From NCBI RefSeq assembly GCF_018398935.1, contig NZ_CP074694.1:4650001-4682000 (forward strand): DNA of 32,000 nt. The letters are read 5' to 3'. Positions 2,302 to 32,000 of the stretch are shown here, piece by piece. Each line of letters begins with the position of its first letter. Positions within the stretch are counted from its first letter, which is position 1. The notes below the pieces were generated by a model. The model saw nothing but the letters and a program-made list of their open reading frames with translations. It ran no database searches and had not been told where the DNA came from. Source of the DNA: Telmatocola sphagniphila (GTDB lineage Bacteria; Planctomycetota; Planctomycetia; Gemmatales; Gemmataceae). The translations under genes and the position numbers were made by a program.

Positions 2302-2323
2302 AGGCCTTGCGGGAGAATCGACG

Positions 2324-3700
2324 ATGTTCCTGAATCGACGGACGCTATTACAGACCACCGCCAGCGGCTTCGGATATATGGCTTTTTCGGCGCTGGCCGC
2401 GCAAGCATCGGCAAAGGACAACAAGAATCCTCTCGCCCCGAAGTCGCCGCACTTCACGCCTAAGGCCAAGCATGTGATTTTCCTCTGCATGGACGGCGGT
2501 CCTTCGCACGTCGACACCTTCGACTACAAGCCGAAGTTGCAGTCCGATGACGGCAAGCCCTACAGCCGCGGCCGCTTCAACGGCGCCAAACTGCTCGGTT
2601 CCCCCTGGAAGTTCAAAAAAAGCGGACAGAGCGGGCAGATGATTTCCGAACTCTTTCCGCATCTCGCCCAGCAGGCCGACGATCTGTGCATACTCAACGG
2701 TATGCATACCGATATTCCCAATCACCCGCAGGCATTTTTGCAGATGCACTGCGGCATCTTCCAGTTTCCAAGACCTAGCCTCGGTTCCTGGGTGCTGTAC
2801 GGGTTGGGCACGGAAAACGAGAATCTGCCTGGATTCATTACAATTGCTCCACCGCCTACCAATGGTGGACCAGCGAACTACGGAGCCTCGTTTCTGCCGG
2901 CCGTTTATCAGGGTACGAAGATCGCCGGGAATGGCCCGCGGCAGTTCGGCGAGGACGCCAAAGTCGCCAACATCGAGAACTCCAAACAATCGGTCTTCGC
3001 TCAACGGCAGCAACTCGATTTTCTGCAATCGCTAAATCGCAACGCACTCGATCAGATGGGTCCGAACCCCAACATCGAAGGCCTCATTGAATCGTACGAA
3101 CTCGGTTTTCGCATGCAGGCCGAGTTGCCCAAGGTGATGGATACCAAGAACGAATCACAGGAAACCTTGAAGCGTTATGGCATCGGTGAAGCGGAAACCA
3201 ATGTCTTCGGCAAACAGTGCCTGATCGCCCGCAAGATGGTCGAAGCGGGGGTTCGCTTCGTGGAAGTGACCAAGCCCGCCTGGGATCAGCACCGAAACTT
3301 GAAGAACGATCTGGCGGCGAATTGTCACGCGGTCGATCAACCGGCGGCCGCTTTGATTGCCGACTTGAAAGCTAGAGGATTACTGAAAGATACCCTGGTG
3401 ATCTGGGGCGGCGAGTTTGGCCGTACTCCGGCCGCGCAGGGGAACGATGGCCGGGATCACAACTCGAAGGGTTACAGCATGTGGATGGCCGGGGGCGGCG
3501 TCAAAGGTGGCTTAACCTACGGCAAAACGGACGACTATGGCTTTGAGGCGGTCGAAGGAAAAGTTCACATCCACGATTGGCATGCGACGATACTGGCCCT
3601 GCTGGGATTGGACCACGAGAAATTGACCTGTCGCTACGCCGGGCGGGAAATGCGACTGACCGATACCAAGGGAACGGTAGTGAAAGCCATCATGACCTGA
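2324..3700 (+). CDS. DUF1501-family protein (sulfatase/alkaline-phosphatase-like fold) with a Tat-type signal
   Basis: ATG at 2324 with GGGAGA 8 nt upstream. N-terminus MFLNRRTLLQTTASGFG...AAQASA has a twin-Arg-like signal. Core motifs are CMDGGPSHVDTFDYKP, WGGEFGRTP and GRDHN. Confidence 0.85.
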   Translation: MFLNRRTLLQTTASGFGYMAFSALAAQASAKDNKNPLAPKSPHFTPKAKHVIFLCMDGGPSHVDTFDYKPKLQSDDGKPYSRGRFNGAKLLGSPWKFKKSGQSGQMISELFPHLAQQADDLCILNGMHTDIPNHPQAFLQMHCGIFQFPRPSLGSWVLYGLGTENENLPGFITIAPPPTNGGPANYGASFLPAVYQGTKIAGNGPRQFGEDAKVANIENSKQSVFAQRQQLDFLQSLNRNALDQMGPNPNIEGLIESYELGFRMQAELPKVMDTKNESQETLKRYGIGEAETNVFGKQCLIARKMVEAGVRFVEVTKPAWDQHRNLKNDLAANCHAVDQPAAALIADLKARGLLKDTLVIWGGEFGRTPAAQGNDGRDHNSKGYSMWMAGGGVKGGLTYGKTDDYGFEAVEGKVHIHDWHATILALLGLDHEKLTCRYAGREMRLTDTKGTVVKAIMT

Positions 3701-4587: not shown

Positions 4588-5670
4588 TTAGCGTTGAACG
4601 CGAGCAGATCCACCTTTGGCGAAGGCTTCCACTTCCTCGAGTTTCGCCATGGTGACGTCGCCGGGGAAAGTGGTGAGCAAGGCTCCGTGAGCCCAGCCGA
4701 GCCGCAGGGCTTCCTCGGGCGAACGGCCCGTGATCAAACCATAGATCAGACCGGCCGCAAAGCCATCGCCACCGCCGATGCGGTCGTGAACGTCCAGGTG
4801 CGTTGTCGGACTGATGTAGCGATGCCCATTGAGCCAGACGACTGCAGCCCACTCGTGGCGATTGGTGGAATGAACTTCTCGAAGGGTGGTGGCCACGCCT
4901 TTGATGTTAGGGTATTTGTGAACCACGCCGTCTATGGACTTGAAGAAAACCTCAGGATCGAGTTTCGAGGTTGCATGGACATCCGGCCCGGTGATCCCAA
5001 GACCTTTTTGCAAATCCTCTTCGTTACCGATCAGCACATCGACATTTTCGACAATTCGGCCCATAACCTCATGCGTTCTTTTCAGGCCTCCGATGGCGGC
5101 CCAGAGTTTGGCCCGGTAATTCAAGTCGAACGAGACGATCGCCCCGGCGGCCTTGGCGGCCTGCATGCCTTCGATAATCAGTTCCGCGGTGGTCTCCGAA
5201 AGGGCCGCGAAAATGCCACCCGAGTGGAACCAGCGAACGCCGCTGGCGAAGATCTTTTTCCAGTCGAAGTCGCCGGGCTTGAGCAACGAGCCGGCTTCGT
5301 TGGATCGGTTGTAGAAGACGACCGGCGCTCGAACGCCGAGACCGCGGTCGCTGTAGACGGTGGCGATGTTGGGGCCGCGCACGCCGTCATGGTCGAACCA
5401 TTTGTAGAACGGGGTTACGCCGGCTTCGCGAACGCGGGCCTGCACCAGTTCGCCGATGGGATACTTCACCATGGCGGTGGCGACGCCGGTCTTCAGGCCG
5501 AAGCAGTCGGCCAGATTGGCCGAGACGTTGTATTCACCGCCGGAGACGTGAATATCGAAAGAACGGGCTTTGCGAAACGGAATCAGACCCGGGTCGAGCC
5601 GGTGAACTAAAGCCCCTAGAGAGAGAAAATCGAGTTCGCAAGCATCGGTCCGGATATTCAGTGAGTTCAT
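4588..5670 (-). CDS. PfkB-family sugar kinase, 2-dehydro-3-deoxygluconokinase-like
   Basis: ATG at 5670, 360 aa. C-terminal GGGDGFAAGLIYGL matches the PfkB signature-2 region. Overall length and the N-terminal LSLGALVHRLDPG layout resemble KdgK-type members. Substrate is not certain. Confidence 0.75.
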   Translation of the reverse strand: MNSLNIRTDACELDFLSLGALVHRLDPGLIPFRKARSFDIHVSGGEYNVSANLADCFGLKTGVATAMVKYPIGELVQARVREAGVTPFYKWFDHDGVRGPNIATVYSDRGLGVRAPVVFYNRSNEAGSLLKPGDFDWKKIFASGVRWFHSGGIFAALSETTAELIIEGMQAAKAAGAIVSFDLNYRAKLWAAIGGLKRTHEVMGRIVENVDVLIGNEEDLQKGLGITGPDVHATSKLDPEVFFKSIDGVVHKYPNIKGVATTLREVHSTNRHEWAAVVWLNGHRYISPTTHLDVHDRIGGGDGFAAGLIYGLITGRSPEEALRLGWAHGALLTTFPGDVTMAKLEEVEAFAKGGSARVQR

Positions 5671-7125: not shown

Positions 7126-7332
7126 TCAAAGAGTTTCGACCAGGGCTTTTTCCGCAGCTTCCTGCTTGCGCAGTTCTTCCAAAATCTGTTCCGGGGTGAG
7201 CCAGATCACTTCGCCTTTTCCGGGCCCGGCTACCGGAACGCTCTGGCCCAGTAGGGCGCTGCGCCGCAGAACATCTCGAATCGCACGCTGCGCGGCCTGC
7301 GTATAGGCCCGACCTTCAGGACTTTGGTTCAT
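7126..7332 (-). CDS. Hypothetical 68-aa protein; candidate partner or antitoxin of the upstream zeta-like kinase
   Basis: ATG at 7332 has AAGGAA about 8 nt upstream. The alternative ATG at 7365 has GAGG immediately adjacent, which is poor spacing. The ORF overlaps the 3' end of the zeta-like gene by 17 nt, and its stop lies 8 nt before the hslU ATG. I recognise no family. The product is MNQSPEGRAYTQAAQRAIRDVLRR...LTPEQILEELRKQEAAEKALVETL. Confidence 0.5.
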   Translation of the reverse strand: MNQSPEGRAYTQAAQRAIRDVLRRSALLGQSVPVAGPGKGEVIWLTPEQILEELRKQEAAEKALVETL

Positions 7333-7912
7333 ATCGGATTTCCTTTTGAAATCTTCCCCAGACATCCTCGTTTAGAACGTTTGGCATTGCACTACCAATT
7401 CCCTCGGCAATTGAGGCAGTATTAAGACCGCTGTTGTTGTAAACAAACCACCTGTCTGCCAGTGGCCGATAGTGATCCCAAAACAATTTCAAGCTTCGTT
7501 TGTATCGGCGGTGGATCGTTTCAGCTGGAATATCGTGGCCCCCCTGGCTCACCCGATACTGCACACGGGAAACCGCCAATTCCACCGATCCCGGCCAGAG
7601 GTAATGCAACAGTATTTCGTATCCTTCCGCTTTTAATTTCTGGATCAGAGGAATGTAGGATCTTCCCGAAAGAGTCGTCTCCACCGAAAAGTTGGCTCTC
7701 TTTTCCCTCAAGGCATTCAGCCATTCCACCAATATCCGGCCTGCTTCGAAGGCCACACTTTCCGGAAAGAAGCCATTGAGTCCTCGGGCGATCTGGTCGG
7801 CATTGACGAAAATCAGAGGCGGGGAAGATTTACCAATCAGTTCCGTGGCCGCGGATGATTTACCGGCTCCATTGATTCCACCCAGCAACACGAATAGCGG
7901 TTTCGTTGCCAT
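7316..7912 (-). CDS. Zeta-toxin-like / COG4185-type P-loop kinase (198 aa)
   Basis: Start [20 protein letters not shown] contains a Walker A motif. The block FSVETTLSG...GYEILLHYLWPGSVELAVSRVQYRVSQGGHDIPAETIHRRYKRS matches my recollection of the zeta toxin/COG4185 family. Its ATG (7912-7910) overlaps the hslV stop as TGATG. The listed 290-aa ORF (to 8188) is an upstream extension running out of frame through hslV and is rejected. Confidence 0.8.
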   Translation of the reverse strand: MATKPLFVLLGGINGAGKSSAATELIGKSSPPLIFVNADQIARGLNGFFPESVAFEAGRILVEWLNALREKRANFSVETTLSGRSYIPLIQKLKAEGYEILLHYLWPGSVELAVSRVQYRVSQGGHDIPAETIHRRYKRSLKLFWDHYRPLADRWFVYNNSGLNTASIAEGIGSAMPNVLNEDVWGRFQKEIRYEPKS

Positions 7913-8448
7913 CACTCCAGGGTCGTAACGCTGATGTTTTTGTTGGTGTAAATGCAGAGCTCGCCGGCAATCTCCATGGCCGCTTTCACGATCTGGCCCG
8001 CGTCTAACTTCGAATGTTGCATCAGCGCTCGGGCAGCCGCTAAGGCATAAGAGCCGCCGGAGCCGATCGCCAGGATGCCGTCGGTCGGTGCGATCACATC
8101 GCCGGTGCCCGATACCAACAACAAATGATCTTTGTCGAGCACGATGATCATCGCTTCGAGCCGGCGCAGGGCCCGGTCGGTACGCCAATCCTTGGCCAGT
8201 TCGGTCGCGGCCCGGGGGACTGATCCCTGATGATCCTTAAGTTTGGTTTCAAATCGCTCGAGTAGGGCAAAAGCATCCGCAGCGGCTCCGGCAAACCCCG
8301 CGAGGACCTTACCATCTAACAGTTTTCGCACCTTTAGAGCGTCATTTTTCATGACGATATTACCGAGCGTAACCTGCCCATCGCCCCCGATGGCGGATTT
8401 TCCGTCGCGTTTAACAGCCAAAATTGTGGTGGCGTGGATGCGATTCAC
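7912..8448 (-). CDS. hslV: ATP-dependent protease subunit HslV
   Basis: [39 protein letters not shown] and [14 protein letters not shown]. The GTG at 8448 has AGGAA 7 nt upstream and gives [10 protein letters not shown], resembling the short pro-sequence of Bacillus CodW-type HslV. The listed ATG at 8484 has no SD and would add 12 aa. Confidence 0.9.
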
Positions 8449-8640: not shown

Positions 8641-9753
8641 ATGAGAGCGTGGTTCGGCAAACTGCTTGCAGTGGTATGCACCGTCAGCCTGATGGCTGGA
8701 GGAACAGCCCAAGCCCAGGCAAAGAAGGCGGCCCGTTTATTCGTAGAAGATGGCGCGGGTCTCTTCAGCGAATCGACTATCAAGAAAGCCAAGGATACGA
8801 TTGCGGATGTGCTGGGCGACCGGGAGCGCGAAGTTCACATTCAGACGTATGCGAAACTATCGGACGACGATCACAAAGAGTTCGAAGCTCTGAAAAAAGA
8901 CGTCGATGCCAAGAAGGCTGAGGTGAGTGAACTCGAAAAATTCTGGGACCGTTGGGCGAAAAAGAAAGCTGTCGGCGATAAGGATGTGGTGGTTTTGATC
9001 AACAAGAGTCCCGGGATGGTTTACGTTCTGTCCGATTCCCGGGCGACTAAAGAAGGTTTCGATAAATCGAACGACAGAAAATTGAAAGATATGCTGACAG
9101 CGGGTTTACGGGAAGCGGCCAGCAAAACGACACCCGCCGATCAGGAAGTGGCCCGAAATGTCGCCCTGATAGATGGCGTGAAGTATCTGGCGAATAACCT
9201 TCCAACTAAGAGTGTTCCCGCCAGTCGAAACAGTGGGAATACGACGAATCACAACAACGCACCGGCCCGTAACGGGGCAGCGCGCGAAGGGGGTGGAATG
9301 ATGTCCTGGATTTGCATCGGTCTGTGTATCGTTGCCGGTATCTGGCTGATCTCCGGTCTGTTCCGTGCCTTCTCCGGTGGCGGGGGCGGGGGTTATGGTC
9401 CGGGCGGTGGTATGGTCGGCGGCGGTTACGGGGGTGGAGGCGGCGGATTCTTCAGCGGCCTCATGGGCGGCTTGTTCGGCGCGGTCGCCGGAAACTACCT
9501 CTACAACAACCTCTTTGGCGGCAGCACCAGTTCGGCCTGGGGTAGCGACAACTACAACAACTCCGGTGGCGGGGATTATGGCAACAACGATGCCGGGGCC
9601 GGGGACTTCAGCGACGGTGGCGTCGGCGGGTCCTTCGATGACGGCGGATCGGCCGGTGGCGGAGATACGGGTGGTGGCGGCGGAGATTGGGGTGGTGGAG
9701 GAGGCGACTTCGGCGGTGGTGGCGGAGATTTTGGTGGCGGCGGCGATTTCTAA
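8641..9753 (+). CDS. Secreted/membrane TPM-domain-like (YgcG-like) protein with a long Gly/Asp-rich C-terminal tail
   Basis: Signal peptide LLAVVCTVSLMAGGTAQAQA. LFVEDGAGLFSESTIKKAKDTI resembles the start of a TPM domain. There is one TM helix, WICIGLCIVAGIWLISGLF. About 130 aa of Gly-rich sequence follow, ending GGGGGDWGGGGGDFGGGGGDFGGGGDF. Confidence 0.6.
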   Translation: MRAWFGKLLAVVCTVSLMAGGTAQAQAKKAARLFVEDGAGLFSESTIKKAKDTIADVLGDREREVHIQTYAKLSDDDHKEFEALKKDVDAKKAEVSELEKFWDRWAKKKAVGDKDVVVLINKSPGMVYVLSDSRATKEGFDKSNDRKLKDMLTAGLREAASKTTPADQEVARNVALIDGVKYLANNLPTKSVPASRNSGNTTNHNNAPARNGAAREGGGMMSWICIGLCIVAGIWLISGLFRAFSGGGGGGYGPGGGMVGGGYGGGGGGFFSGLMGGLFGAVAGNYLYNNLFGGSTSSAWGSDNYNNSGGGDYGNNDAGAGDFSDGGVGGSFDDGGSAGGGDTGGGGGDWGGGGGDFGGGGGDFGGGGDF

Positions 9754-14248: not shown

Positions 14249-15370
14249 TCATCTGAAGAGACGGTAAGTCTCTTCTGCTCGCTGCTGTAATTTCTTGAGG
14301 ACCTCGGCGGCATCGGCCCCGGAGGCGAACCTCATGCAAACCGGCCAGCCCGCTTTTTGCGGCTGGCCCGCTCGGGGCAGATCGGCCCACGAAGCATCCA
14401 ATTCCCGCCCGTGCGGAAAAGGAAAATCCACTCTCGCATACAGGATGGCTTTGCCCTCGACCATTTTCCCATTTGCCAACTCCGCCGAGATTTGCCCCTT
14501 TTCAAAACAGGCCAAGTGATCGCGAAGCAACGGGTAGTCCGTAACCCGTTCGTAAAGCTCGACCGCTGCGGTGTAGCGCGGGTTCACTTCCACCAAGTAA
14601 GCCTGCTCCTGATGAAGCAGGAAATCGATGCCAAATAAACCCCGCAAACCGCATTCATGAGCAACCGCATCTCCCATCGCTTGTAACTGCCTTTTGAGTT
14701 CCTCGTTCACGGGAAGCGGACCGATGTTGCCTGCATACAAAAACCCGCTTGCCCCCAGCCAGGAAGTCCCAATCAGTTGCCGATTCAGGGCCAGTAAACG
14801 AGTTTCGCGCGGATGAGCGAGGAATATCGCCGAGTGCGGTTCGCCGGGACAGAATTCCTGAAAGTAGTAATCGGGATGCGCGGCGATTTCCGTTCCGGCC
14901 ACTTGGTGAATTCCCATTCCGGCTGATTTGCCCTTCGGCTTTTTCAGCCAGTTTCGCTTACCGGGTTGCGCAGTCTCCGCCAGTTCTAGCGCGGGCAAAT
15001 TGTATTTGCGAAGGATTCGCGACAGAAAAAAGGGGTCGCGCACTATTCGCAGGCTCTCGCCGGCATTACCGTAGAGCGGCCGTTGCAGTGCGAGTCGATC
15101 CACGACATCGGGATGATTTTCCAGCCCGCCGGTGTAAATCAAAGGGGCTTTCGGAAAAGAATTCAAAGCATCCAAAAATCCGTTTGGATATTCCTCGAAA
15201 GAAAGGACGCGCGTCGTGGCGATCCGCTGAAGATCGGTATCGCCGAACAGATCGATCGCGAAGACTTCCCGACCCACCCGTCGAGCCGATTGAGCCGCCG
15301 CTCGCGCGGAAGCTCCGATCACGATCAAAGGGGAACTCAGATCATCCCCCAGAGTCGGCGCAAGCCCCAT
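14249..15370 (-). CDS. ATP-grasp domain protein (COG2232-like predicted carboligase)
   Basis: GLFGIDFLLHQEQAYLVEVNPRYTAAVE is an ATP-grasp C-terminal E-x-N motif. The N-terminal PLIVIGASARAAAQSA is Rossmann-like. The ATG at 15370 still overlaps the upstream gene by 34 nt; the listed start at 15421 overlaps it by 85 nt. Confidence 0.6.
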   Translation of the reverse strand: MGLAPTLGDDLSSPLIVIGASARAAAQSARRVGREVFAIDLFGDTDLQRIATTRVLSFEEYPNGFLDALNSFPKAPLIYTGGLENHPDVVDRLALQRPLYGNAGESLRIVRDPFFLSRILRKYNLPALELAETAQPGKRNWLKKPKGKSAGMGIHQVAGTEIAAHPDYYFQEFCPGEPHSAIFLAHPRETRLLALNRQLIGTSWLGASGFLYAGNIGPLPVNEELKRQLQAMGDAVAHECGLRGLFGIDFLLHQEQAYLVEVNPRYTAAVELYERVTDYPLLRDHLACFEKGQISAELANGKMVEGKAILYARVDFPFPHGRELDASWADLPRAGQPQKAGWPVCMRFASGADAAEVLKKLQQRAEETYRLFR

Positions 15371-17727
15371 TCGAAGCCGAGGAGGGAAACGAACAGAATC
15401 AACAAAGTAGGCAGGAACCAACTGTTGGCATTGCGATGCCAGTCGGGATACAGCTTGGGTTTAGCGTTGAGCGCCTGCACTGGATTTTTCAACATTTCCT
15501 CGAGGAACGACGGCAAACGATCGACCCGCCGTACGGCATCCTGCACCGTGCCATTCGCGGTGTTCTCGATGGCGAGTAGTATGTCGTAACGGGCCGCCGG
15601 TTTGATCAATTCGTCGGAAATATCAGGAAAAACGATGTATCGGGCCATCGCATCGCCGGTGACCTCATGGCCTTCCGCATCTTTGCCCTGCCCCCAGGCG
15701 ACAACGCGATATTCTCCGGGCTGGGTGACCTCGAAGGCACTGACAAATTGTCCCTTCGCATCCCGCTCCGGCGGTTTGGCTTTGTTCTTATCGGGAGTTT
15801 CCTGCCCTTGCAGGATCTGGAATTTAATATCCGCCGTGGGAATGTCTTCCCCGCGTTTATCGCGTACGCCGAAGCGGATGGTCTGCTTGGCGCTTTGAGC
15901 CAGTCGTCGGAATTCCGGCCGGGCGTAGACAACCCCTTCCACTTCATCTTGATGAGCCAGCCAGAGGACGACCTGCTTCCAGAATCGCAAGGTCAGATCG
16001 TAGCCTTCCGGCTTATCCGGCAGGCCGAGCTTACGCCAGGACCGACCGAGGGTATTGACACCAAAGGCCAGCGTTCGCCCTTTGCCGACTTCCATGCCGA
16101 CCATCAGCGGCGCCTCCTGCCCGTTCTCCCGCCGAGCAACCGCCAAGGGTATATGCCCGGTCTTGGGAATGCCGATCGGTGTGTAGCCTTGGAGTCGGGT
16201 ATTCGGCTTTCCCGCCGGGTCGTTCAGCCGATTCCAGATTTCCTTGTTCTTTTTCGGGTCGCTGTCGAGCTTCAGCATGAAATTGTTGAGGCCGGTCGGC
16301 GTGGGAATAATCTGAATCCGTTCCTCGTCGAACTGCTGAACTTCTCCGAAAGAAACCGGAAGGATATCGGCAATCGGCCGGCCGGTGATATTCCAGCGAT
16401 CGTCGGCCGGGGTGTCGGGGGAGCCGGCGAACGAATCCTGGCCGCCGAGCATCATCAGCCCTACTCCCTTATCGCGCACCAGTTTTTCGATTTGCGTCAT
16501 CAATTTGGGATTGATGGCCAGCAGCCGTTTGGGAGAGACGTTACCGAGAATAATGACGTCGTAGGCTTGTTCGGTCAGGTCGAATTTTCGCTGTTCGGAT
16601 TCAGGTAAGGGATCGTCGGTCTGCCGGAGAACCTCGACGAAATCGAAACGCTTGTCGCCGGCCAGCGCGGTGCGCAAGTAAGCAAAATCCTCGTGCAGAC
16701 GGTAGATCAAAAGAACGCGAACGCCTTCTTTGGTAACGCTGAAATAACTTTCAATCGTGTTATTCAGCACGGTGGTTTCGCCCGGGAGCGGTTCCAATTC
16801 GACCTTCACTCGATACTCGCCCGGCTTATCGGGAGCCTTGGTGAGAATTTCGATTTCATTCCCCAGCTTTTTAGGAAGCTGGACATCGTCGGTTTTCACT
16901 AGCTTATCGTCGATGAAGAGTTTAATTTTGGTTCGCGCTCCTTCAAAGCCCAGCGCATCGGCGATCACCTTGATGCGCAGATCGGCTTTGATCGACACCG
17001 GGGAGGGATCGGCGGCGATACTCGTCAGGGCGATATCCTTGGATTCCGAACTGGTCGATTCCTGGCCGACGGCGAAAGAATAGATCGGGCAGCCGATGCT
17101 GCGATATTTCTGAGCTTCGCTGATGGCCGGTTTAGCGACTCCGTTGTCGGCCCCATCGCTCAGGATAAGTAGCCCCCTGAGGCGGGCTTCCCCTTGATAC
17201 TTGTCGTACAACTTCGACATCATGGTCCCGAAATCGGTTCGCTTGCCATCGGGTTTAGCCGTGGCCGGATCCCAGACGTCCTTGGCGGGGTCGAAATCTT
17301 TATCGAACCGGAAGAGCTGTACGCTCACCTGCTGTTCATTCTTTAACGATTCGAGCAGGGGGGCACTCTTCTCCAGGAATTTCTTCATGAATTCCCAGCG
17401 GCTGAGATTATTCGATTCATCCTTGAGGGTCATACTCTCGGAGGAATCGATGGCTACCAGAAGTGTGGAAGGCTGTTTCGGTTTATCGGTGACGGAAATC
17501 GAAGGGCGCAGGGTCGTCAGAATCGCAATCAGCAGCGCGAGCAGTCGCAGGGCGATCAGCAGCAGAATCCGTCGGCCACTGGCCTTGGAATTTCCCAGGT
17601 AAGTCCAGATAGTCAGTCCGATGAGCGTGCCCGCGGCCAGTCCCAAAAAGACATACCCGAAGCGGTCCCCCTCGGTTAAAGGGCGCCACGCCGGGTTACT
17701 ACTGAAATCAAGTTGATAGTCGGCCAT
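15337..17727 (-). CDS. Membrane protein with a VWA domain and an amidotransferase-like (ThuA/GATase1-like) domain
   Basis: ATG at 17727. There are two N-terminal TM helices and a MIDAS-like LLVAIDSSESMTL with LLILSDGADNG. A later block, VLLIYRL...YDVIILGNVSP...GVGLMMLGGQDSF, suggests the second domain. A C-terminal TM helix reads WFLPTLLILFVSLLGF. Length is 796 aa. Confidence 0.6.
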   Translation of the reverse strand: MADYQLDFSSNPAWRPLTEGDRFGYVFLGLAAGTLIGLTIWTYLGNSKASGRRILLLIALRLLALLIAILTTLRPSISVTDKPKQPSTLLVAIDSSESMTLKDESNNLSRWEFMKKFLEKSAPLLESLKNEQQVSVQLFRFDKDFDPAKDVWDPATAKPDGKRTDFGTMMSKLYDKYQGEARLRGLLILSDGADNGVAKPAISEAQKYRSIGCPIYSFAVGQESTSSESKDIALTSIAADPSPVSIKADLRIKVIADALGFEGARTKIKLFIDDKLVKTDDVQLPKKLGNEIEILTKAPDKPGEYRVKVELEPLPGETTVLNNTIESYFSVTKEGVRVLLIYRLHEDFAYLRTALAGDKRFDFVEVLRQTDDPLPESEQRKFDLTEQAYDVIILGNVSPKRLLAINPKLMTQIEKLVRDKGVGLMMLGGQDSFAGSPDTPADDRWNITGRPIADILPVSFGEVQQFDEERIQIIPTPTGLNNFMLKLDSDPKKNKEIWNRLNDPAGKPNTRLQGYTPIGIPKTGHIPLAVARRENGQEAPLMVGMEVGKGRTLAFGVNTLGRSWRKLGLPDKPEGYDLTLRFWKQVVLWLAHQDEVEGVVYARPEFRRLAQSAKQTIRFGVRDKRGEDIPTADIKFQILQGQETPDKNKAKPPERDAKGQFVSAFEVTQPGEYRVVAWGQGKDAEGHEVTGDAMARYIVFPDISDELIKPAARYDILLAIENTANGTVQDAVRRVDRLPSFLEEMLKNPVQALNAKPKLYPDWHRNANSWFLPTLLILFVSLLGFEWGLRRLWGMI

Positions 17728-24779: not shown

Positions 24780-26144
24780 GTGTCTCAAGCACGAGCATTG
24801 GAATTACTGCGTGAAGGAATTGCCGCCGCACGAGCGGGCGATAAACCACGGACGCGGCAACTGTTGAGCCAGAGCACTGCGCTCGATCCTACTAACGAAA
24901 TTGCCTGGCTCTGGTACGCCGGGGTGACCGATTCACCTGCGGAAGCTCTTCGCTTTCTGGAAAAAGTTCTGCAAATCAATCCCCGGAACGAGCGGGCACT
25001 GACGGGCATTAAGACGGTTCGGCTGCAGGCGGGGATTGCAGCGGCCAAGGCTCAAGATCGCAGCGGGGCTCGCGATCTGCTACGGTTGGTGGTCGCCGAG
25101 GAGCCGCGTAACGAAGTGGCTCTCATGTGGCTCGCGGGGGTTACGGATTCGCCCGAAGAGGCCCTGGGCTATCTTCTCCGCGTTCTGGAGATCAATCCAA
25201 ACAACGAAAGAGCCAAGAGCGGGGTCACTTACTACCAGAACAAGATTCCCAAAGCGCCGCCGGTCACTCCCGCGCCGGAACCGCTCTCACCGCCTCCAAT
25301 TTCCCTCGAGAAAAGTTCGGCCGTCTGGATCTGTCCGTTCTGCTCCACAGGTGCGGAAGTCAAACTCAATCGCTGCCCCAATTGCCGGGCGATCCAGGTT
25401 CCGCATCAGATCAATCTGGAAACCTTTACGCCGGATGTCGATCGCGAGAAGATTCGCACCGCCGTCATGAAACTGACGATGCAGCTGCGGACCAAGCCCG
25501 ACTACGCTTCCAATTACAATCTCGGTTTGGCCTGTCTGAATCTGGGCCGGATCGATGAATCGATCCATCACTTCACGGCGGCGCTTCGCTTTCAGCCCGA
25601 TAATGAAGCGCTCGATGTCTTTTTACAGCAGCTCGAACAGAGAAAAACCACCCCGGAGCGGGCTTCGATTCGCGTGCCTGCGAAATCGAACCCGGTCGTG
25701 GCCGGAGCGATGCGTCCGCCGACGCCGAAGCCGTTATCCTCGGATTCCGGGTCCAAGCGGATGATCCTGGTTGTCGACGACAGTCCGACGATTCGCAAGC
25801 TGGTGGCCATGACCATGATCAAAAACGGTTACCGGGTCGTCGAAGCCAGCGAAGGCAACGAAGCGGTCACTCGCATGCAGGAACAGGGCACTCCCGATCT
25901 GGTGCTCCTCGATATCAACATGCCCGGGATGGATGGCTACACGCTTTGCAAGCTGATCCGTCAGAAGCCGGAAACGTCCAAAATTCCGGTGATCATGCTG
26001 TCGGGCAAGGATGGTTTTTACAACAAAATTCGTGGGAAAATGGCAGGTTCGACCCTTTATCTGACCAAGCCCTTTCAACCCGATGCTTTGCTGAAAGTCG
26101 TGCAGAAGTACTGCCCGGCGGATGGGATGGCCGTCACCGCTTAA
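24780..26144 (+). CDS. PilG-like response regulator: duplicated TPR-like module, 4-Cys zinc ribbon and C-terminal receiver domain
   Basis: GTG at 24780 with GAGGAG 7 nt upstream. Two ~72-aa repeats read ...NEIAWLWYAGVTDSPAEALRFLEKVLQINPRNERA... and ...NEVALMWLAGVTDSPEEALGYLLRVLEINPNNERA.... The zinc ribbon is CPFCSTGAEVKLNRCPNC (about 25332-25385). The receiver runs from about 25755: ILVVDDSPTIRKLV...LLDINMPGMDGY...VIMLSGKDGFYNKIRGKMAGSTLYLTKPF. That sequence closely resembles Pseudomonas PilG as I recall it. Confidence 0.8.
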   Translation: MSQARALELLREGIAAARAGDKPRTRQLLSQSTALDPTNEIAWLWYAGVTDSPAEALRFLEKVLQINPRNERALTGIKTVRLQAGIAAAKAQDRSGARDLLRLVVAEEPRNEVALMWLAGVTDSPEEALGYLLRVLEINPNNERAKSGVTYYQNKIPKAPPVTPAPEPLSPPPISLEKSSAVWICPFCSTGAEVKLNRCPNCRAIQVPHQINLETFTPDVDREKIRTAVMKLTMQLRTKPDYASNYNLGLACLNLGRIDESIHHFTAALRFQPDNEALDVFLQQLEQRKTTPERASIRVPAKSNPVVAGAMRPPTPKPLSSDSGSKRMILVVDDSPTIRKLVAMTMIKNGYRVVEASEGNEAVTRMQEQGTPDLVLLDINMPGMDGYTLCKLIRQKPETSKIPVIMLSGKDGFYNKIRGKMAGSTLYLTKPFQPDALLKVVQKYCPADGMAVTA

Positions 26145-26176
26145 AATTCACCGCGAGATAAGTTCAACGGGAAGTT

Positions 26177-26755
26177 ATGAGTTCGATCCTTCGCCCAAGT
26201 CCTGTCGCACCGTCCAGTTCGGCTCCCCGAGCGGTCCCCGCCGCTGCGCTTCCCGATTCTGAAAAATTTCTGACGGAGCTGTGCGATTTTTTGACGAAGC
26301 TCGATCAGGAGCGCGAAATTCTGCGACAGGTCGAACTTCCGGCCGATGCCGAGCGAGCCGTTCAGACGGTGTACCAGCTGGTGGATAGTATCGTGGAGTT
26401 TGCCAACGAGCGGTTTGGCATCAACCATCGGCACGAGAAGTTGCAGGCGACGATTCTGGAATTTTATCAGGACTCGAACGAGCTGTTACCGAGCCTGCGA
26501 CGCCGACGCTTTCAGCGCTCGTTGACGAGCGGCGAATTCGCTGCCCAGAAGGGGCTGATCGCCCGGGTATTGAACTTGTTTGTAGAAGCGTTGTATCTTC
26601 AGTTCGAGTTTTTCACGAGCCAGTTGGCCGATCGGCGGCACGCCCGAATCTGGGTGGAAGCCGCCGCGGTTTTCTGCGTCGACGTGCAGCGAATTTTAAG
26701 ATCCTACGGTTTAACTGAAACGGAAGTACGAAGGAATTCAGGACATGACGAATAA
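26177..26755 (+). CDS. Hypothetical 192-aa, predicted mostly helical protein inside the chemosensory cluster
   Basis: ATG at 26177. The ORF ends 11 nt inside the next gene, implying coupled translation. Codon usage and GC look native. I recognise no motif. The N-terminal 30 aa are Pro/Ser/Ala-rich. Confidence 0.5.
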   Translation: MSSILRPSPVAPSSSAPRAVPAAALPDSEKFLTELCDFLTKLDQEREILRQVELPADAERAVQTVYQLVDSIVEFANERFGINHRHEKLQATILEFYQDSNELLPSLRRRRFQRSLTSGEFAAQKGLIARVLNLFVEALYLQFEFFTSQLADRRHARIWVEAAAVFCVDVQRILRSYGLTETEVRRNSGHDE

Positions 26756-27110
26756 CACCATTCTGATCGTAGACGACTCTCCCACGGAACTCAAGATTGT
26801 GACCAATGCTTTGCGCAATCGGGGTTATCGCATAGTCACGGCCATCGATGGCGATGAAGCTCTGCAGAAGGCTTCGCACGAGAAGCCCCGGCTGATGCTC
26901 CTGGATGTTGTGCTGCCGAAGAAAAATGGTTTCCAGGTCTGCCGGCAATTGAAGAACTCGGCCGAGACCAAGGACATCAAAATCATTCTTCTGACGAGCA
27001 AAAGTCAGGATAGCGACCGCTACTGGGGCATGAAGCAGGGTGCGGATGCTTATGTGACCAAGCCTTTTGAAGAAGCAGAACTGCTTTCCAGTGTCGGTGC
27101 CTTCATGTAA
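26745..27110 (+). CDS. Single-domain CheY-like response regulator, PilH-like
   Basis: ILIVDDSPTELKIV...LMLLDVVLPKKNGFQVCRQLK...IILLTSKSQDSDRYWGMKQGADAYVTKPF resembles PilH/PixH-type receivers. AGGA lies upstream of the ATG at 26745. Confidence 0.88.
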   Translation: MTNNTILIVDDSPTELKIVTNALRNRGYRIVTAIDGDEALQKASHEKPRLMLLDVVLPKKNGFQVCRQLKNSAETKDIKIILLTSKSQDSDRYWGMKQGADAYVTKPFEEAELLSSVGAFM

Positions 27111-27225
27111 GCATTTTCCCGCGCGGAATTTTCCTGCCTCGCCCGAAATGATGTCCTAGATTTCTTCCAGACTCTCAAATATTTTGTGCCGTCCTGTGCG
27201 GCACTGCAACGGGGTTGCCGCTGCT

Positions 27226-29043
27226 ATGACACCTCCAGAAGAAGAGGAAAATATCTCGTTCGAGCTGGTTCTGCCCGGTGCAGACGAGCCATCGAGTATT
27301 GGTTGGCTGGCTCCGCCGAGTCCCCCGGACGGGAATGAATCTCCTCTTCCCGGCTGGCTCAACAACGAAACTTCGGGAGAGGAATTTCGTTCGGGACTGG
27401 TCCCTTCTTCCCCCACGATTATCCGCAAGGTTCGGCAATCCACGCTGATCGTTCGCCGAGATGAAATCGAGCGGGATGCTTTAACCGCCAAAGCCCCGAA
27501 TGTGCCGAATGCATCGACACTTCCTCCCGAAGCTCTGAAAAAAGCCGTCAAGAATCCCCTGGTTTACGGGCTCATCGCCAAAGTTTCGCTGCCGCGCCCC
27601 GCTTTTCAGTTTAAGATCGAACACGATCTGCCCGCGAATGTCGCATTACTGGATGTGAAACCGAAAGCGGCGGTCGTTGGCAATCGCATCATCTGGAGTT
27701 TCGGCCGCGTTGATCCGGGCCAGGAAATCCGCCTTCAACTGGTGATTCAGCCCGAGGAAGGTGCGGTCATCAACCCGTCCGACCTCGCCGTCTTTGAAGC
27801 CGGTTACAAGCAATCGCTGCATTTTCAAACGCCCATCGCCCGGCCGCGGCTGTCGGCAGTGGCAGATGGTCCCATTGAAATGCCGATGGGAACCTGGGAA
27901 ACCGTCCGGCTGCAAATTCGCAATTCGGGCAACTGGCCGGTGAAGAACGCCATTGTTCGCGGACTGCTGCCGACCGGCTTGAAGCTCGGGGAAAATGCTC
28001 CGACTCAGGAAGAAATCGGTTTATTGCTGCCGGGAGAAGTTTACGAATTCAGCTACCGGGTGCGAGCCACGCAGGAAGGTCCGCAGACCATCCTCTTCGA
28101 ACTCAGCGGTTCCGATAATACTTCCTGCCAGGTGGAACGGACCATCGTCGTCCTGGCCCCCAAGCTCGAACTTCGCATCCCGGGGCCAATTCGGGCGGCT
28201 CAGGATCAGGAAGTCGAATTTCAACTCGAGCTTTCCAACTTCGGCCGGGCCTGCACCGAGCAATACGAAGTGTATCTCGATTACTCGGCCCACCTTGAGC
28301 CACTCAAGTTCGAGCGCGGTTCCATCGATTCGGTCCGTCGTCGCCTGAGCTGGACGGGGCCGGCCATGCAGCCGAACTCGGAAGTCTCCTATCCCGTTCG
28401 CTTCAAGACCGCTCAACTGGGAATCGCCGAGTTGAACGTCGAAGTTCGAACGGCCAGCGGTGCACGCATCAAATCGAGCCGGTCGCTGACGATCGAAAAG
28501 CAAACCGACCGCAAGCGCGAGATTCAGGAACAGTTCATCGCGTCGATGGAAGCTCGACTCAACGTGGGATTTCCCGCAGTTAGCGGGGCCGCCGATGCGA
28601 CTGTCGAAACCAGTCAGCACATCGTTTTCAGCATTCATAATTCCGATTTTGCTCTGCCGATGTCTGTCGTGCGTGAAGTCGGCCGGGCTCCTCATACGAC
28701 ACCGGTGCCCAACGTACCCGATTGGTTGGTAGGCCTGGCGAACATACGAGGCGAGATCGTCTCGGTCGTCGATCTCGCAGGCTTCCTGCAAATCAATTCC
28801 TCGGGCGATACGGCCGAGAAGCGAATTCTGGTCGTGCGTAGCCAGCAAAGCAGCGTGCAGACGGCCTTGATCGTCGATCGCATCCGCGGCCTGAGAAATT
28901 TGAACGAACAGACCTTGCAGCCTATGGAAATCGCGTCGCCGTTCGTGCGCGGCCGAGTCGAATCGCAAGGTCTGGAGATATCGCTTCTGCAGACGGAGGA
29001 GATGTTGAATTCTCCCCAGATGCGGCAGTTTGAAATTTATTAA
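27226..29043 (+). CDS. CheW-domain adaptor (PilI-like) with a ~460-aa N-terminal extension containing three Ig-like (DUF11/CARDB-like) repeats
   Basis: The C-terminal CheW domain runs from about 28615: HIVFSIHNSDFALPMSVVREVGR...PDWLVGLANIRGEIVSVVDLAGFL...RILVVRS...ALIVDRIRGLRNL. The N-terminal repeats include LPANVALLDVKPKAAVVGNRIIWSFGRVDPGQEIRLQLVIQP, TVRLQIRNSGNWPVKNAIVRGLLPTGLKL...YEFSYRVRATQEG and EVEFQLELSNFGRACTEQYEVYLDYSAHLEPL...VSYPVRFKTAQLG. No signal peptide or TM helix is present. The ATG at 27226 is preferred over the listed TTG at 27184. Confidence 0.8.
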   Translation: MTPPEEEENISFELVLPGADEPSSIGWLAPPSPPDGNESPLPGWLNNETSGEEFRSGLVPSSPTIIRKVRQSTLIVRRDEIERDALTAKAPNVPNASTLPPEALKKAVKNPLVYGLIAKVSLPRPAFQFKIEHDLPANVALLDVKPKAAVVGNRIIWSFGRVDPGQEIRLQLVIQPEEGAVINPSDLAVFEAGYKQSLHFQTPIARPRLSAVADGPIEMPMGTWETVRLQIRNSGNWPVKNAIVRGLLPTGLKLGENAPTQEEIGLLLPGEVYEFSYRVRATQEGPQTILFELSGSDNTSCQVERTIVVLAPKLELRIPGPIRAAQDQEVEFQLELSNFGRACTEQYEVYLDYSAHLEPLKFERGSIDSVRRRLSWTGPAMQPNSEVSYPVRFKTAQLGIAELNVEVRTASGARIKSSRSLTIEKQTDRKREIQEQFIASMEARLNVGFPAVSGAADATVETSQHIVFSIHNSDFALPMSVVREVGRAPHTTPVPNVPDWLVGLANIRGEIVSVVDLAGFLQINSSGDTAEKRILVVRSQQSSVQTALIVDRIRGLRNLNEQTLQPMEIASPFVRGRVESQGLEISLLQTEEMLNSPQMRQFEIY

Positions 29044-29138
29044 TGGCCTGACGGCCGACCTCCGCCGCTCCCGTACGAGCGTGGAGAGTATTAACCGATT
29101 GAGTAGATCTCGAACTCTATTGAGAGTAGGTAGAACTG

Positions 29139-30632
29139 ATGAACCCCTTATCGAAATTCAGCAACCTGCGCGTCTGGCAGAAACTGACTCTCGTGGCCGT
29201 GGCCCTGACCATGCCGATCCTGATGCTCGCTTATCTGACCATCGCGGGTGGTCGGGGCGAACAGTCTTCGGTCACTGCCTTCGTGGTCATTCTTTTAGGG
29301 GGCGGCCTGGCCGGCTGGCTGATGTATGCGATCACCCGCTCGGTGAATCGGCAGACGCAGTCGATCCGCGCCATGTTCGAGCAGATTTCAGTCGGGAATA
29401 TCGACGCCCGAGCCGAAGTGATCACCGGGGATGAACTCGGCGAGATCGCCAACGGCCTCAACGCCATGATGGATAACATGCGAAGCCTCATCCAGTCGCG
29501 CGAAGAGCGAGATCGGATGCAGGGCGCAGTTATGAAACTGCTCGAAGAAGTTTCCGGCGTCGCCGATGGGGACCTCACTAAGGAAGCCGAAGTGACCGCC
29601 GATGTGACTGGCGCCATCGCCGACTCGTTCAACTATATGATCGGCCAGTTGCGAATGGTTATCGGCAACGTGCAGCAGACCACTCGCCAGGTTTCCCGCT
29701 CGGCCACCGATGTCTACTCCTCCGCGAAGAATCTGGTGGGCGGTACCGAACAGCAATCGAAGCAGATCGTCAGTACTTCCGAGGCCGTCGAAGAGATGGC
29801 GGGCTCGATTCAACAGGTTTCGGAAAACGCCATCGTCTCGGCTCAAGTGGCCGAGCAGGCTCTGAAGAATGCCCAGGCTGGTAACTCGGCCGTGAAGAAT
29901 ACCATCTCCGGGATGGACCGCATTCGCGATCAGGTGCAGGAAACGGCAAAACGCATCAAGCGGCTGGGTGAATCGACGCAGGAAATCGGACAGATCGTGC
30001 AGTTGATCGACGATATCGCCGACCGCACTTCGATCCTCGCTTTGAACGCTTCGATCCAAGCCTCGATGGCCGGGGAATCGGGCCGCGGCTTTGCGGTGGT
30101 CGCCGAGGAAGTGGAACGATTGGCCGATCGGTCGACCGATGCCACCCGCAAGATTGCCACGCTGGTGAAGACGATTCAATCGGAAACCAACGAAGCGGTC
30201 GGGGCCATGGAAAAGGGTATTCAGGAGGTGGTGGAAGGTTCTCGCCTCGCTTCGCAGGCCGGTCAATCGCTGGCGGAAATTGAAGCCGTTTCCAAGAAAC
30301 TGGCCGAGTTGATTTCCTCGATCTCGACCGCATCCCGTCAGCAGGCCAGAGCCTCTGAAGGGGTGGCCAAGTCGATGAACGAAATTTCCGCAATCACCCA
30401 ATCGACCGCGGCGGGTACCAAGAACGCGGCTTTAGCAGTCTCCAATCTCGCCGGACTGGCAGAAGATCTTCGACAATCGGTTTCGATGTTCCGCTTACCG
30501 CGAACCGGCCAGACTGAAGACGGCACCTCGAATTCTCCCCGAGCAACTCGGGCCGGCCTGGATCTCTCTTCCATGCCGAATGTGGGCGGCAATAACAAAC
30601 CCAAAGAAGCGATGCCGGTAACCCGGTTCTAG
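29139..30632 (+). CDS. Methyl-accepting chemotaxis protein, PilJ-like, with a membrane hairpin and no sizeable periplasmic domain
   Basis: Two TM helices are separated by about 10 residues (LTLVAVALTMPILMLAYLTIAG / AFVVILLGGGLAGWLMYAI). A HAMP region follows (GDELGEIANGLNAMMDNM). The segment LLEEVSGVADGDLTKEAEVTADVTGAIADSFNYMIGQL is typical of PilJ/PixJ-type receptors. The signalling hairpin reads ILALNASIQASMAGESGRGFAVVAEEVERLADRS. Confidence 0.9.
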   Translation: MNPLSKFSNLRVWQKLTLVAVALTMPILMLAYLTIAGGRGEQSSVTAFVVILLGGGLAGWLMYAITRSVNRQTQSIRAMFEQISVGNIDARAEVITGDELGEIANGLNAMMDNMRSLIQSREERDRMQGAVMKLLEEVSGVADGDLTKEAEVTADVTGAIADSFNYMIGQLRMVIGNVQQTTRQVSRSATDVYSSAKNLVGGTEQQSKQIVSTSEAVEEMAGSIQQVSENAIVSAQVAEQALKNAQAGNSAVKNTISGMDRIRDQVQETAKRIKRLGESTQEIGQIVQLIDDIADRTSILALNASIQASMAGESGRGFAVVAEEVERLADRSTDATRKIATLVKTIQSETNEAVGAMEKGIQEVVEGSRLASQAGQSLAEIEAVSKKLAELISSISTASRQQARASEGVAKSMNEISAITQSTAAGTKNAALAVSNLAGLAEDLRQSVSMFRLPRTGQTEDGTSNSPRATRAGLDLSSMPNVGGNNKPKEAMPVTRF

Positions 30633-30645
30633 AAATCGAAACTCT

Positions 30646-32000
30646 ATGGATTTCAGTACCGGAGATACTCCGATGAAGAAGAAACCCGATGCGGAACTGC
30701 TGGCCGATTTCGTCGCCGAGGCCAAGCAGTATCTGACGCTGATTCCCGGTTATCTGGAGACTTTTCTGGCCGATAACAGCCAGGGAGAATCGATCCAGGA
30801 AGTCTTCCGGCTCTCGCACAGCATCAAGGGCGCGGCCTCGATGGTCGGCCTTCCGGAACTGAGCGAACTGGGTTACAAGCTGGAGCGCGCGGCCGAGGAA
30901 ATCGGGATGAATCCCGAGTGGGCCAGCACGGATAATCTCGAGTTGTTCCAGGAAACCCTGAACATCATCGGCGCTTATCTGGAGCGCTGTGCCGACGGCG
31001 ATTACGAGGATACTTCCGATCTTCAGGCTCTGACGCAAATCTGGGAAGAACCCACAGCCGCCTTCTCCGCCGAATCTCCTTCGCGTTTGCTGAAGATGGA
31101 CTATAGCGAGGAGGGCCCGGATTTCGGTTTCGATCCCGGCGAGCCCGACCTGGGAAGTTTCGAGCCCGCCGTCGCCGAAGAAAACAGCAGCAGCGAACCC
31201 ATCCCGCCGGAACTTCTGGAAATCTTCGCGTTGGAAGCGGAAGATCACCTCAAGAATATCACCACGCTGCTTCCCGAATTGCAGAACCAGCCGGAAGCCC
31301 GCGATCTGATTCAACAGATCCGCCGCAGCGCTCATACGCTAAAGGGCTCGGCGGCCATGGTCGGCTTCCACGACATCACCCATCTGTCGCACCGGATGGA
31401 AGATCTACTCGATCAGATGTACGAGGAAGGACGCAAGACGACCCCGGAGATTCTGAGCATCCTGTTCAAATCGACGGACGTGCTGGAAGACCTTTCCAAG
31501 GGCCAGAATCGTTCGAGCGAACTGAAAGCCCTCTACGGCGATTTCGAACAGATCCTTCAAGGAACCCCACTGGAATCGGCCGTCGAAGCCGAGGCCCCAG
31601 CGACGGTCGCCGTACCCGTCGAAAGACCCCCCGAGCCCAAGAATGCCCCGATTCCCGCACTGGAGCGGATTGCGGCGGCTCTGGCTGCGGGCAAATTGGT
31701 CGCTCCGGCTCCGGCAGCGGCGACTCCCGAGAAAGCCCGCCGCTCGGGCCAGTTTCTGCGCGTGCCGATCGAAAAATTGGACGATCTGGTGCGCCTGATT
31801 GGCGAGCTGGTCATCAGCCGAACCGAATTCGAACAACGCCTCAGCAATTACGTCCGCCAGATCGAAGAACTCCAGCTAAGCTCCTCGCGGCTGCGCCGTG
31901 CGGCCACCAAGCTGGAAACCGAATACGAAGCCCGCACGCTGGCCAGCAGCCGGTTGCGCAACTTCCCCGGTAAGAACGGCTCTTACCCGATGTTGTCGCT
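30646..32000 (+). CDS. ChpA/PilL-like CheA histidine kinase N-terminal part with at least two Hpt domains; 3' end beyond the window
   Basis: My own translation from the ATG at 30646 is open to nt 32000, so this ORF is absent from the supplied track, which listed no ORF without an in-window stop. Hpt 1 is VFRLSHSIKGAASMVGLPELSELGYKLE. Hpt 2 is IRRSAHTLKGSAAMVGFHDITHLSHRMEDLLD. Next come LRVPIEKLDDLVRLIGELVISRTEFEQ and a coiled-coil-like segment. An alternative start is the ATG at 30673 (MKKKPD). Confidence 0.8.
   Translation, partial: MDFSTGDTPMKKKPDAELLADFVAEAKQYLTLIPGYLETFLADNSQGESIQEVFRLSHSIKGAASMVGLPELSELGYKLERAAEEIGMNPEWASTDNLELFQETLNIIGAYLERCADGDYEDTSDLQALTQIWEEPTAAFSAESPSRLLKMDYSEEGPDFGFDPGEPDLGSFEPAVAEENSSSEPIPPELLEIFALEAEDHLKNITTLLPELQNQPEARDLIQQIRRSAHTLKGSAAMVGFHDITHLSHRMEDLLDQMYEEGRKTTPEILSILFKSTDVLEDLSKGQNRSSELKALYGDFEQILQGTPLESAVEAEAPATVAVPVERPPEPKNAPIPALERIAAALAAGKLVAPAPAAATPEKARRSGQFLRVPIEKLDDLVRLIGELVISRTEFEQRLSNYVRQIEELQLSSSRLRRAATKLETEYEARTLASSRLRNFPGKNGSYPMLS

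Follow-up and report, generated by a model that had tools for sequence, protein, structure and literature searches.

CheW is usually regarded as a minimal, single-domain coupling protein. The adaptors PilI and ChpC, from the non-flagellar Pil-Chp pathway of Pseudomonas aeruginosa, are single-domain proteins of about 170-180 amino acids (aa). PilI serves as primary adaptor, ChpC in the extension of the array (PMC13599512). ParP enters the core units of methyl-accepting chemotaxis proteins (MCP) and CheA by its C-terminal region, and its N-terminus, via a flexible, Pro-rich stretch, binds the polar anchor ParC (PMC5706961). FrzB of Myxococcus xanthus is reported to be a divergent accessory CheW-like protein, which shapes array organisation instead of serving as core coupler, and is devoid of a CheA-binding region (PMC6952110). 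Fusions of CheW to domains with a sensory or regulatory function, among them PAS, receiver (REC) and CheR, are rare (bioRxiv 10.1101/2022.05.07.491035); the same survey mentions rare combinations with unrelated domains in passing, and contains no occurrence of "DUF" or "Planctomycet". Here a gene of Telmatocola sphagniphila, a Gemmata-like planctomycete, is described, located in a stretch of 32,000 nucleotides (contig NZ_CP074694.1, positions 4,650,001 to 4,682,000), hereafter indicated as the window, whose product carries a CheW domain at the end of a long arm, made of a disordered acidic tail and three immunoglobulin (Ig)-like domains.

What is new is the association of a CheW coupling protein with an accessory arm of this kind, the presence of a short motif in 18 of 24 tails, the existence of stand-alone proteins, composed of the tail and of the first two Ig-like domains (Ig1 and Ig2), and the mostly exported nature of the distant Ig relatives. 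The architecture is visible to domain databases, where it is annotated simply as "CheW", and appears to be uncharacterised. In the literature searched, no paper contains both "CheW-like domain" and "DUF11", and no characterised CheW of such architecture was found, in agreement with an earlier note on this DNA.

The locus was compared with seven further ones, six of which reach the downstream MCP and CheA genes, for a total of eight. The gene order resembles that of Pil-Chp and Pix pathways: REC, REC, CheW, MCP, a hybrid CheA-REC with multiple histidine phosphotransfer (Hpt) domains, and a second CheW-type adaptor. Like PilI/ChpC in the P. aeruginosa Pil-Chp pathway and PixI/HmpC in the cyanobacterial Pix/Hmp ones, the fusion gene belongs to a non-flagellar type of system, where it lies in the PilI position; the layout typical of the type IV pilus (Tfp) class, to which Pil-Chp belongs, is found in the window and in loci L003, L005, L006 and L008. 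The two adaptor genes resemble the PilI/ChpC pair, the second adaptor being here a tandem CheW-CheW protein. In contrast with PilI and ChpC, the fusion has ~460 aa, made up of the tail and the Ig domains, ahead of its CheW domain. A second difference from Pil-Chp is that no member of the CheR/CheB families (PilK/ChpB) is present among the called genes of the eight loci, although such genes may be located elsewhere in the genome. The MCP of the window, described as PilJ-like in the earlier note, agrees with this definition for its gene order, but not for its domains: the PilJ N-terminal domain is absent, and Pfam reports just HAMP and MCPsignal.

The N-terminal parts of ParP and of the fusion protein are unrelated in sequence, ParP has no Ig domains, and no ParA/MinD-like (ParC-type) ATPase is found among the called genes of the eight loci. 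CheV (CheW-REC) is similarly endowed with an accessory domain, which modifies array behavior; in the fusion protein, in contrast, the accessory part is N-terminal, non-enzymatic and Ig-like.

Domain architecture of the fusion protein

The open reading frame (ORF) of the fusion gene spans 27184..29043 (+): its upstream limit is a TTG at 27184, and the first ATG is found at 27226. The 605-aa product coincides, with 100% identity over 100% of its length, with the NCBI entry "chemotaxis protein CheW [Telmatocola sphagniphila]", and the frame is uninterrupted throughout. A true start far downstream, an eventuality considered in the earlier note, is impossible, because residues 41-45, within the tail motif described below, are conserved in homologues: the upstream start is therefore backed by conservation. 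A scan for promoters and terminators gave a signal at chance level, and a NCBIfam scan added nothing specific.

As previously noted, the CheW domain makes up the last quarter of the protein. Pfam CheW (PF01584) matches aa 464-596 with 86.4 bits (cutoff 23.5; E 1.8e-24), over profile positions 1-136 of 138. AlphaFold2 predicts a CheW fold, a beta-barrel of two subdomains, for aa 463-600, with a predicted local distance difference test (pLDDT) score of ~90; the model superimposes on E. coli and Thermotoga CheW in a Foldseek comparison, where 2qdl, 8c5v_E and 2ch4 are matched with TM-scores of 0.77-0.84 and root mean square deviations of 2.0-4.7 A. N506-I-R508-G509 is aligned by phmmer with the N-L-R-G of solved CheWs from the Protein Data Bank (PDB), whose arginine is R62 in E. 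coli CheW; both R508 and G509 are invariant across the fusion family. The domain is canonical and complete. As it superimposes on solved CheWs and retains the invariant NxRG arginine, it is predicted to integrate into MCP/CheA arrays. A truncated CheW of the FrzB type is ruled out, since the domain, unlike that of FrzB, is complete (Pfam 1-136 of 138, TM-score ~0.8).

The N-terminal part was modeled by AlphaFold2 together with the rest of the protein, by using an alignment of 24 family sequences (mean pLDDT 79.9, predicted TM-score, pTM, 0.43). Three all-beta domains are predicted at ~aa 111-205, 207-311 and 312-425, with block-mean pLDDT mostly 90-97. Three DUF11/CARDB-type Ig repeats had been suggested by the earlier note, subject to structure prediction: beta-sandwiches are indeed predicted with high confidence (pLDDT >90), a Pfam DUF11 match is present, and the peptide taken as an example falls within Ig1 (aa 135-176). 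The extension of the repeats, however, had been overestimated: of the ~460 aa assigned to them, the Ig part covers ~315 aa, while the leading ~107 aa are a disordered tail. Ig1 is the best conserved of the three domains, with a mean pairwise identity of 0.32 and five residues (Y114, H133, P136, P146, W157) invariant in the family alignment. The domain orientations are not fixed by the model, because the pTM is only 0.43.

In the fusion protein itself, the Pfam DUF11 (PF01345) match at aa 325-408 is marginal (25.8 bits versus a cutoff of 24.6, no individual stretch being significant alone), and other Ig-like Pfam families match below threshold only. Within the family, DUF11 and CheW are both matched in 24 out of 24 aligned members, DUF11 at E <=1e-3 (best 3.9e-27); many of them also match CARDB and NPCBM_assoc. 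The profiles of the three domains align with each other by hhalign (Ig2-Ig3, E 9e-25; Ig1-Ig3, E 7e-14; Ig1-Ig2, E 3e-9), while BLAST of the lone sequence detected no similarity among Ig1, Ig2 and Ig3: the repeat is ancient, because its homology is visible to profiles and not to single-sequence BLAST. The family profile of the Ig region matches the CARDB-like Pyrococcus domains 3idu and 2kl6 and the C-terminal Ig domain of protein 4.2. Tandem Ig-like proteins are also found by Foldseek when the N-terminal part is compared with the PDB (E ~1e-10): ciliary central-pair Ig repeats, protein 4.2, transglutaminase C-terminal domains and integrin alpha legs. By both sequence and fold, the three repeats belong with the E-set Ig domains DUF11/CLIPPER, CARDB and NPCBM_assoc.

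CLIPPER is the name recently given to PF01345, described as a CnaA-like stalk domain of secreted fibrillar surface adhesins; it often contains an intramolecular Lys-Asn isopeptide bond, which some DUF11 domains do not have (PMC12617251). Compared with the typical CLIPPER, the Ig domains of the fusion feature neither a signal peptide, nor a surface context, nor a conserved Lys column: none of the columns in the alignment of the 24 family sequences contains Lys in >=60% of sequences. A conserved isopeptide lysine is therefore unlikely, and so are CLIPPER domains stabilised by isopeptide bonds.

The acidic tail and its short motif

The protein opens with an acidic, Pro-rich segment, already recognised in the earlier note: Pro and Glu account for 15% and 12% of aa 1-109, the net charge of aa 1-107 is -7, and no hydrophobic segment is present. 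Family tails otherwise align poorly, but share a short motif, [LIVMFA]PxW[LFM], whose core in the window protein is LPGWL (aa 41-45, 27346-27360). When each tail was shuffled 2000 times, the motif occurred in a mean of 0.30 tails, with a maximum of 3. Acidic residues and a second hydrophobic-Pro usually come next, as in DLPTWLDMELPEF, and the motif is also found in the short stand-alone relatives without CheW. At the sequence level, its enrichment is the signature of a putative short linear docking motif. The C-terminal peptide of FtsZ (D-I-P-x-F-L) and the eukaryotic W-acidic motifs, which bind tetratricopeptide repeats (TPR), may be similar to it.

The same pattern is also matched, inside the CheW domain, by the V-P-D-W-L of NVPDWL (aa 496-501, 28711-28728). 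This segment presumably aligns with the P..F-I-K-G of E. coli CheW and, by homology, is likely to be a buried core beta-strand: the likeness is probably a coincidence.

A conserved family and its stand-alone relatives

While word-indexed protein searches gave only 2-3 relatives, the family came to light when aa 1-455 alone were used in an exhaustive HMMER search, which produced 3011 proteins at E <=1e-3. The window protein, two database matches and the HMMER matches listed form a set of 152 sequences (P0001-P0152). A CheW domain is located at the C-terminus of 26 of them, so that at least 26 clusters (50% identity), from different samples, share the architecture; nearly all of the best full-length HMMER matches end in a CheW domain. 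The CheW-Ig fusion is therefore a conserved family and not an artefact: the conservation of both architecture and tail motif rules out the merging of two genes, or a wrong start. Fusions are labeled in the sources as CheW, "chemotaxis signal transduction protein" or "TIGR01451 repeat protein".

The named sources are all Planctomycetota: T. sphagniphila and one metagenome-assembled genome (MAG) each of Planctomycetia, Planctomycetota and Gemmataceae. Planctomycetia is the only taxon named for fusion homologues of the T. sphagniphila protein. The taxonomic range of the fusion seems narrow; a genome-contig scan, which yielded two short paralogues only, resolves it poorly.

Two complete genes code for tail, motif, Ig1 and Ig2, with no CheW (Table 1). 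One comes from a Planctomycetota MAG, the other from a Gemmataceae MAG; both have unrelated neighbours and are located outside chemosensory loci. Similar proteins of 230-300 aa are present among the best matches (P0007, P0008, P0012, P0013, P0159, P0160). The existence of such complete genes indicates that the unit formed by tail and Ig domains functions without CheW, outside chemosensory loci.

Cellular location

By Kyte-Doolittle hydropathy, the fusion protein is free of hydrophobic stretches that would qualify as signal peptide or transmembrane helix, as the earlier note had maintained: the highest 19-residue mean, 1.25, falls within the CheW domain, and the first 40 residues have a net charge of -9. 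Among the matches listed, a hydrophobic N-terminus is found in none of the 26 fusion proteins, versus 89 of the 126 relatives without CheW, and export of the N-terminus is accordingly ruled out. Since a signal peptide and transmembrane helices are absent, and CheW must share its compartment with MCP tips and CheA, the cytoplasm is the only location compatible with a working CheW. Hydropathy and this compartment requirement place the Ig domains of the fusion protein in the cytoplasm, as previously proposed; the charge of the N-terminus and the family counts point in the same direction. Judging from sequence, the three-domain Ig module is common to a large set of apparently exported DUF11 proteins of planctomycete type, of which the CheW-fused branch is consistently signal-less.

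Seven Ig-module relatives of 590-990 aa (P0003, P0028, P0085, P0094, P0104, P0109, P0111) contain neither a CheW domain nor a hydrophobic N-terminus. Provided that their start codons are called correctly, DUF11 proteins that lack a signal, and possibly reside in the cytoplasm, may be more common in these organisms.

Gene neighbourhood

The cluster genes, from 24780 to 32000, are all on the + strand and separated by short gaps. Downstream of the fusion gene, a MCP gene and then a CheA-REC gene are found in all seven loci with downstream DNA (window, L003, L005, L006, L008, L009, L010); they adjoin the fusion gene in six of the seven, while two unrelated genes are interposed in L010. Full-length counterparts of the CheA, which is truncated by the end of the window, are organised as Hpt-Hpt-dim-HATPase-CheW-REC. 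In the window MCP the two N-terminal hydrophobic segments are only ~7 aa apart, and the protein is therefore essentially devoid of a periplasmic sensor domain; MCPs at the same position in L003, L005, L008 and L010 are 761-794 aa long.

In four loci, a CheW-type gene directly follows the hybrid CheA (Table 1), a position beyond the end of the window. The three such proteins scanned (L003, L005, L006) all contain two Pfam CheW domains: a separate tandem CheW-CheW gene thus provides ordinary coupling capacity besides the fusion protein.

Upstream, a REC gene directly precedes the fusion gene in five of the seven further loci; in L005 it is two genes away, on the opposite strand. A gene coding for a TPR-receiver protein (TPR-REC) lies near the fusion gene in six out of eight loci, window included. 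These proteins are 47-54% identical across five loci, and the L008 version features an additional N-terminal Ser/Thr kinase domain. Two internal repeats of ~70 aa, with the pattern NE.AWLW.AGV...P.EAL..L..VL.INP.N.RA, are followed by a zinc-ribbon-like segment, CxxC...CxxC, and then by the last TPR and the receiver. In L006 a divergent gene just upstream of TPR-REC, 4864-5283 (-), codes for a 139-aa PilZ-domain protein.

The 192-aa protein encoded between TPR-REC and REC has no Pfam or NCBIfam match. Its AlphaFold2 model, obtained from the single sequence, has a pLDDT of 63.5 and no Foldseek match at E <=0.001. Counterparts of 185-231 aa, with a shared C-terminal AR.WV..AA.F.ADL, occupy the same position in L003, L005, L006 and L007.

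No pilus genes are present in the window. T. sphagniphila has been described as non-motile and non-flagellated, in mother as well as daughter (bud) cells (PMC3327967): swimming, therefore, is almost certainly not what the pathway controls. The non-motile host nonetheless keeps a complete chemosensory cluster.

Table 1. Features of the fusion gene, of its neighbours and of related loci. Positions refer to the window, unless a locus (L) is indicated.
Feature	Position	Strand	Basis and remarks
Fusion gene, tail / 3x Ig-like / CheW	27226..29043	+	605 aa, stop codon included; ORF list, identity to database entry, homologue architecture
Disordered acidic, Pro-rich N-terminal tail (aa 1-107)	27226..27546	+	pLDDT <50, composition
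Conserved short linear motif SPLPGWLNNETSGEEF (aa 39-54)	27340..27387	+	translation; family tails
Ig-like domain 1 (aa 110-205)	27553..27840	+	AlphaFold2 strands, pLDDT 90-96
Ig-like domain 2 (aa 206-311), CARDB/DUF11-like	27841..28158	+	AlphaFold2, hhalign to Ig3
Ig-like domain 3 (aa 312-426), with Pfam DUF11 (CLIPPER) match	28159..28503	+	Pfam, AlphaFold2 pLDDT ~95
Helix (aa 430-445)	28513..28560	+	DSSP on AlphaFold2 model; family consensus L..LLA
Flexible linker (aa 446-462) after helix	28561-28611	+	pLDDT <50 over aa 446-459
Complete CheW domain (aa 463-600)	28612..29025	+	Pfam, AlphaFold2, Foldseek, phmmer matches to PDB CheW chains
TPR / zinc-ribbon / TPR / receiver protein (454 aa), PilG/PixG position	24780..26144	+	Pfam TPR families and Response_reg
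Helical protein without known family (192 aa)	26177..26755	+	overlaps next gene by 11 nt
Single-domain receiver (121 aa), PilH/PixH position	26745..27110	+	Pfam Response_reg E 4.9e-27
MCP (497 aa), HAMP and MCPsignal	29139..30632	+	Pfam, sequence
CheA start: two Hpt (2 stretches) and H-kinase_dim	30646..32000	+	Pfam; window end cuts gene
Stand-alone tail, motif, Ig1 and Ig2 gene, 269 aa	L001 7797-8606		complete, no CheW
Stand-alone tail, motif, Ig1 and Ig2 gene, 248 aa	L002 245-991		complete, no CheW
CheW-type protein (315-323 aa) directly after hybrid CheA	L003 15531-16478; L005 15310-16257; L006 14548-15498; L008 11557-12528		

Possible roles of the arm

The earlier note had suggested, for the arm, the roles of scaffold, recruiter, or additional lattice layer: these are hypotheses, not decisively told apart by the present data. 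The interpretation we favour, on a tentative basis, is that the fusion serves as coupling protein, in the position of PilI, within a Pil-Chp/Pix-like, non-flagellar pathway of Planctomycetota, where Ig rod and motif-bearing tail serve to tether or recruit a partner. The CheW domain would plug into the receptor-kinase baseplate; the helix, with ~15 aa of flexible linker, would provide a hinge; the Ig domains, three in a row, would form a rod of ~10-13 nm, pointing into the cytoplasm, at the end of which the distal tail, ~100 aa long, would present the W motif as a docking peptide to a putative partner. In this way the arm might anchor the array to some other protein or structure, or bring such a protein to the array. 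The same tether mechanism is known for ParP (Vibrio, Pseudomonas putida); we infer the function of the arm by analogy with this protein, its closest functional precedent, to which the likeness is functional only. TPR domains bind short peptides, and the TPR-REC protein encoded upstream may be seen as a candidate partner.

A few observations weigh against this interpretation. The motif region has a low pLDDT in the monomer model; the inter-domain geometry is uncertain, as indicated by the pTM, and the notion of a rigid rod is assumed from adhesin stalks. As for the candidate partner, TPR-REC is not adjacent in two of the eight loci, whose fusions keep the motif, and it still adjoins one fusion where the motif is degenerate: because of these mismatches, co-occurrence speaks neither for nor against TPR-REC as the partner.

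The main rival is a pure lattice scaffold, where Ig rods of adjacent CheW subunits touch one another, forming an extra ordered layer under the baseplate, which stabilises or spaces the array with no external partner. Tandem Ig domains are typical structural rods; integrin legs, ciliary central-pair repeats and transglutaminase C-terminal domains are among the Foldseek matches, and the elaborate adaptor set, with its extra tandem CheW-CheW, echoes the division of labour between PilI and ChpC (PMC13599512). On the other hand, the short motif, so enriched in the disordered tails, points to peptide docking and not to lattice contacts, and the proteins made of tail, Ig1 and Ig2, found away from chemosensory genes, show the module at work outside arrays; the stand-alone unit argues for partner binding, over a role existing only inside the array lattice. 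Because of the tail motif and of the stand-alone paralogues, the lattice layer is ranked below the tether, and we regard it as unlikely.

Less likely still, and in fact improbable, is a sensory role, in which Ig domains or tail would bind a cytoplasmic ligand or regulator and modulate the kinase through CheW, as the CheV receiver does. Rare fusions of CheW with PAS, REC and CheR are on record (bioRxiv 10.1101/2022.05.07.491035), and the tiny periplasmic loop of the window MCP would leave room for signals entering from the cytoplasmic side. The linker between arm and CheW, however, is disordered over ~15 aa, a poor conduit for a conformational signal; no ligand-binding signature was seen, as Pfam matches are to structural Ig families only, and the MCPs of related loci, with their 760-790 aa, may have sensor regions of their own.

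It is scarcely credible that the fusion is an artefact, in which a frameshift, an assembly error or a wrongly placed start has merged two genes, or that an unrecognised signal exports its N-terminal part: DUF11/CLIPPER is otherwise described in surface proteins (PMC12617251) and most distant relatives of the Ig module have signal-peptide-like N-termini, but the uninterrupted frame, the same architecture in 26 independent representative sequences, the tail motif conserved upstream of the Ig domains, the lack of hydrophobic N-termini in the fusions and the compartment imposed by MCP and CheA all speak against it.

In a broader and rather doubtful view, Ig rod and W-motif tail might define a class of array-organising adaptors specific to Planctomycetota and unrelated to ParP, which would either link a non-flagellar array physically to a cellular structure or output regulator, or add a second ordered layer below the baseplate, CLIPPER/DUF11 domains having been co-opted for the cytoplasm. 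Beyond a few model bacteria, it is still to be explained how arrays are placed and enlarged, and how they are connected to non-flagellar outputs. With a conserved family whose cytoplasmic arm has this length, array tethering becomes amenable to concrete tests in Planctomycetota, a phylum with an unusual and poorly explored cell biology, and the CLIPPER/DUF11 domain, described in surface adhesins, gains a cytoplasmic setting. The sharply defined hydrophobic-P-x-W-L motif, being short, is open to mutation or to use as a bait.

Other genes in the window

Outside the chemosensory cluster, genes of note are located at 13-3700 (+), 7316-8188 (-), 8641-9753 (+) and 15337-17727 (-). Two large ORFs, of 370 and 796 aa, have no Pfam match at E <=1e-5. 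The window also contains a PSCyt1/PSCyt2/PSD1 gene and a DUF1501 gene, a typical planctomycete pair, together with a zeta-toxin-like gene.

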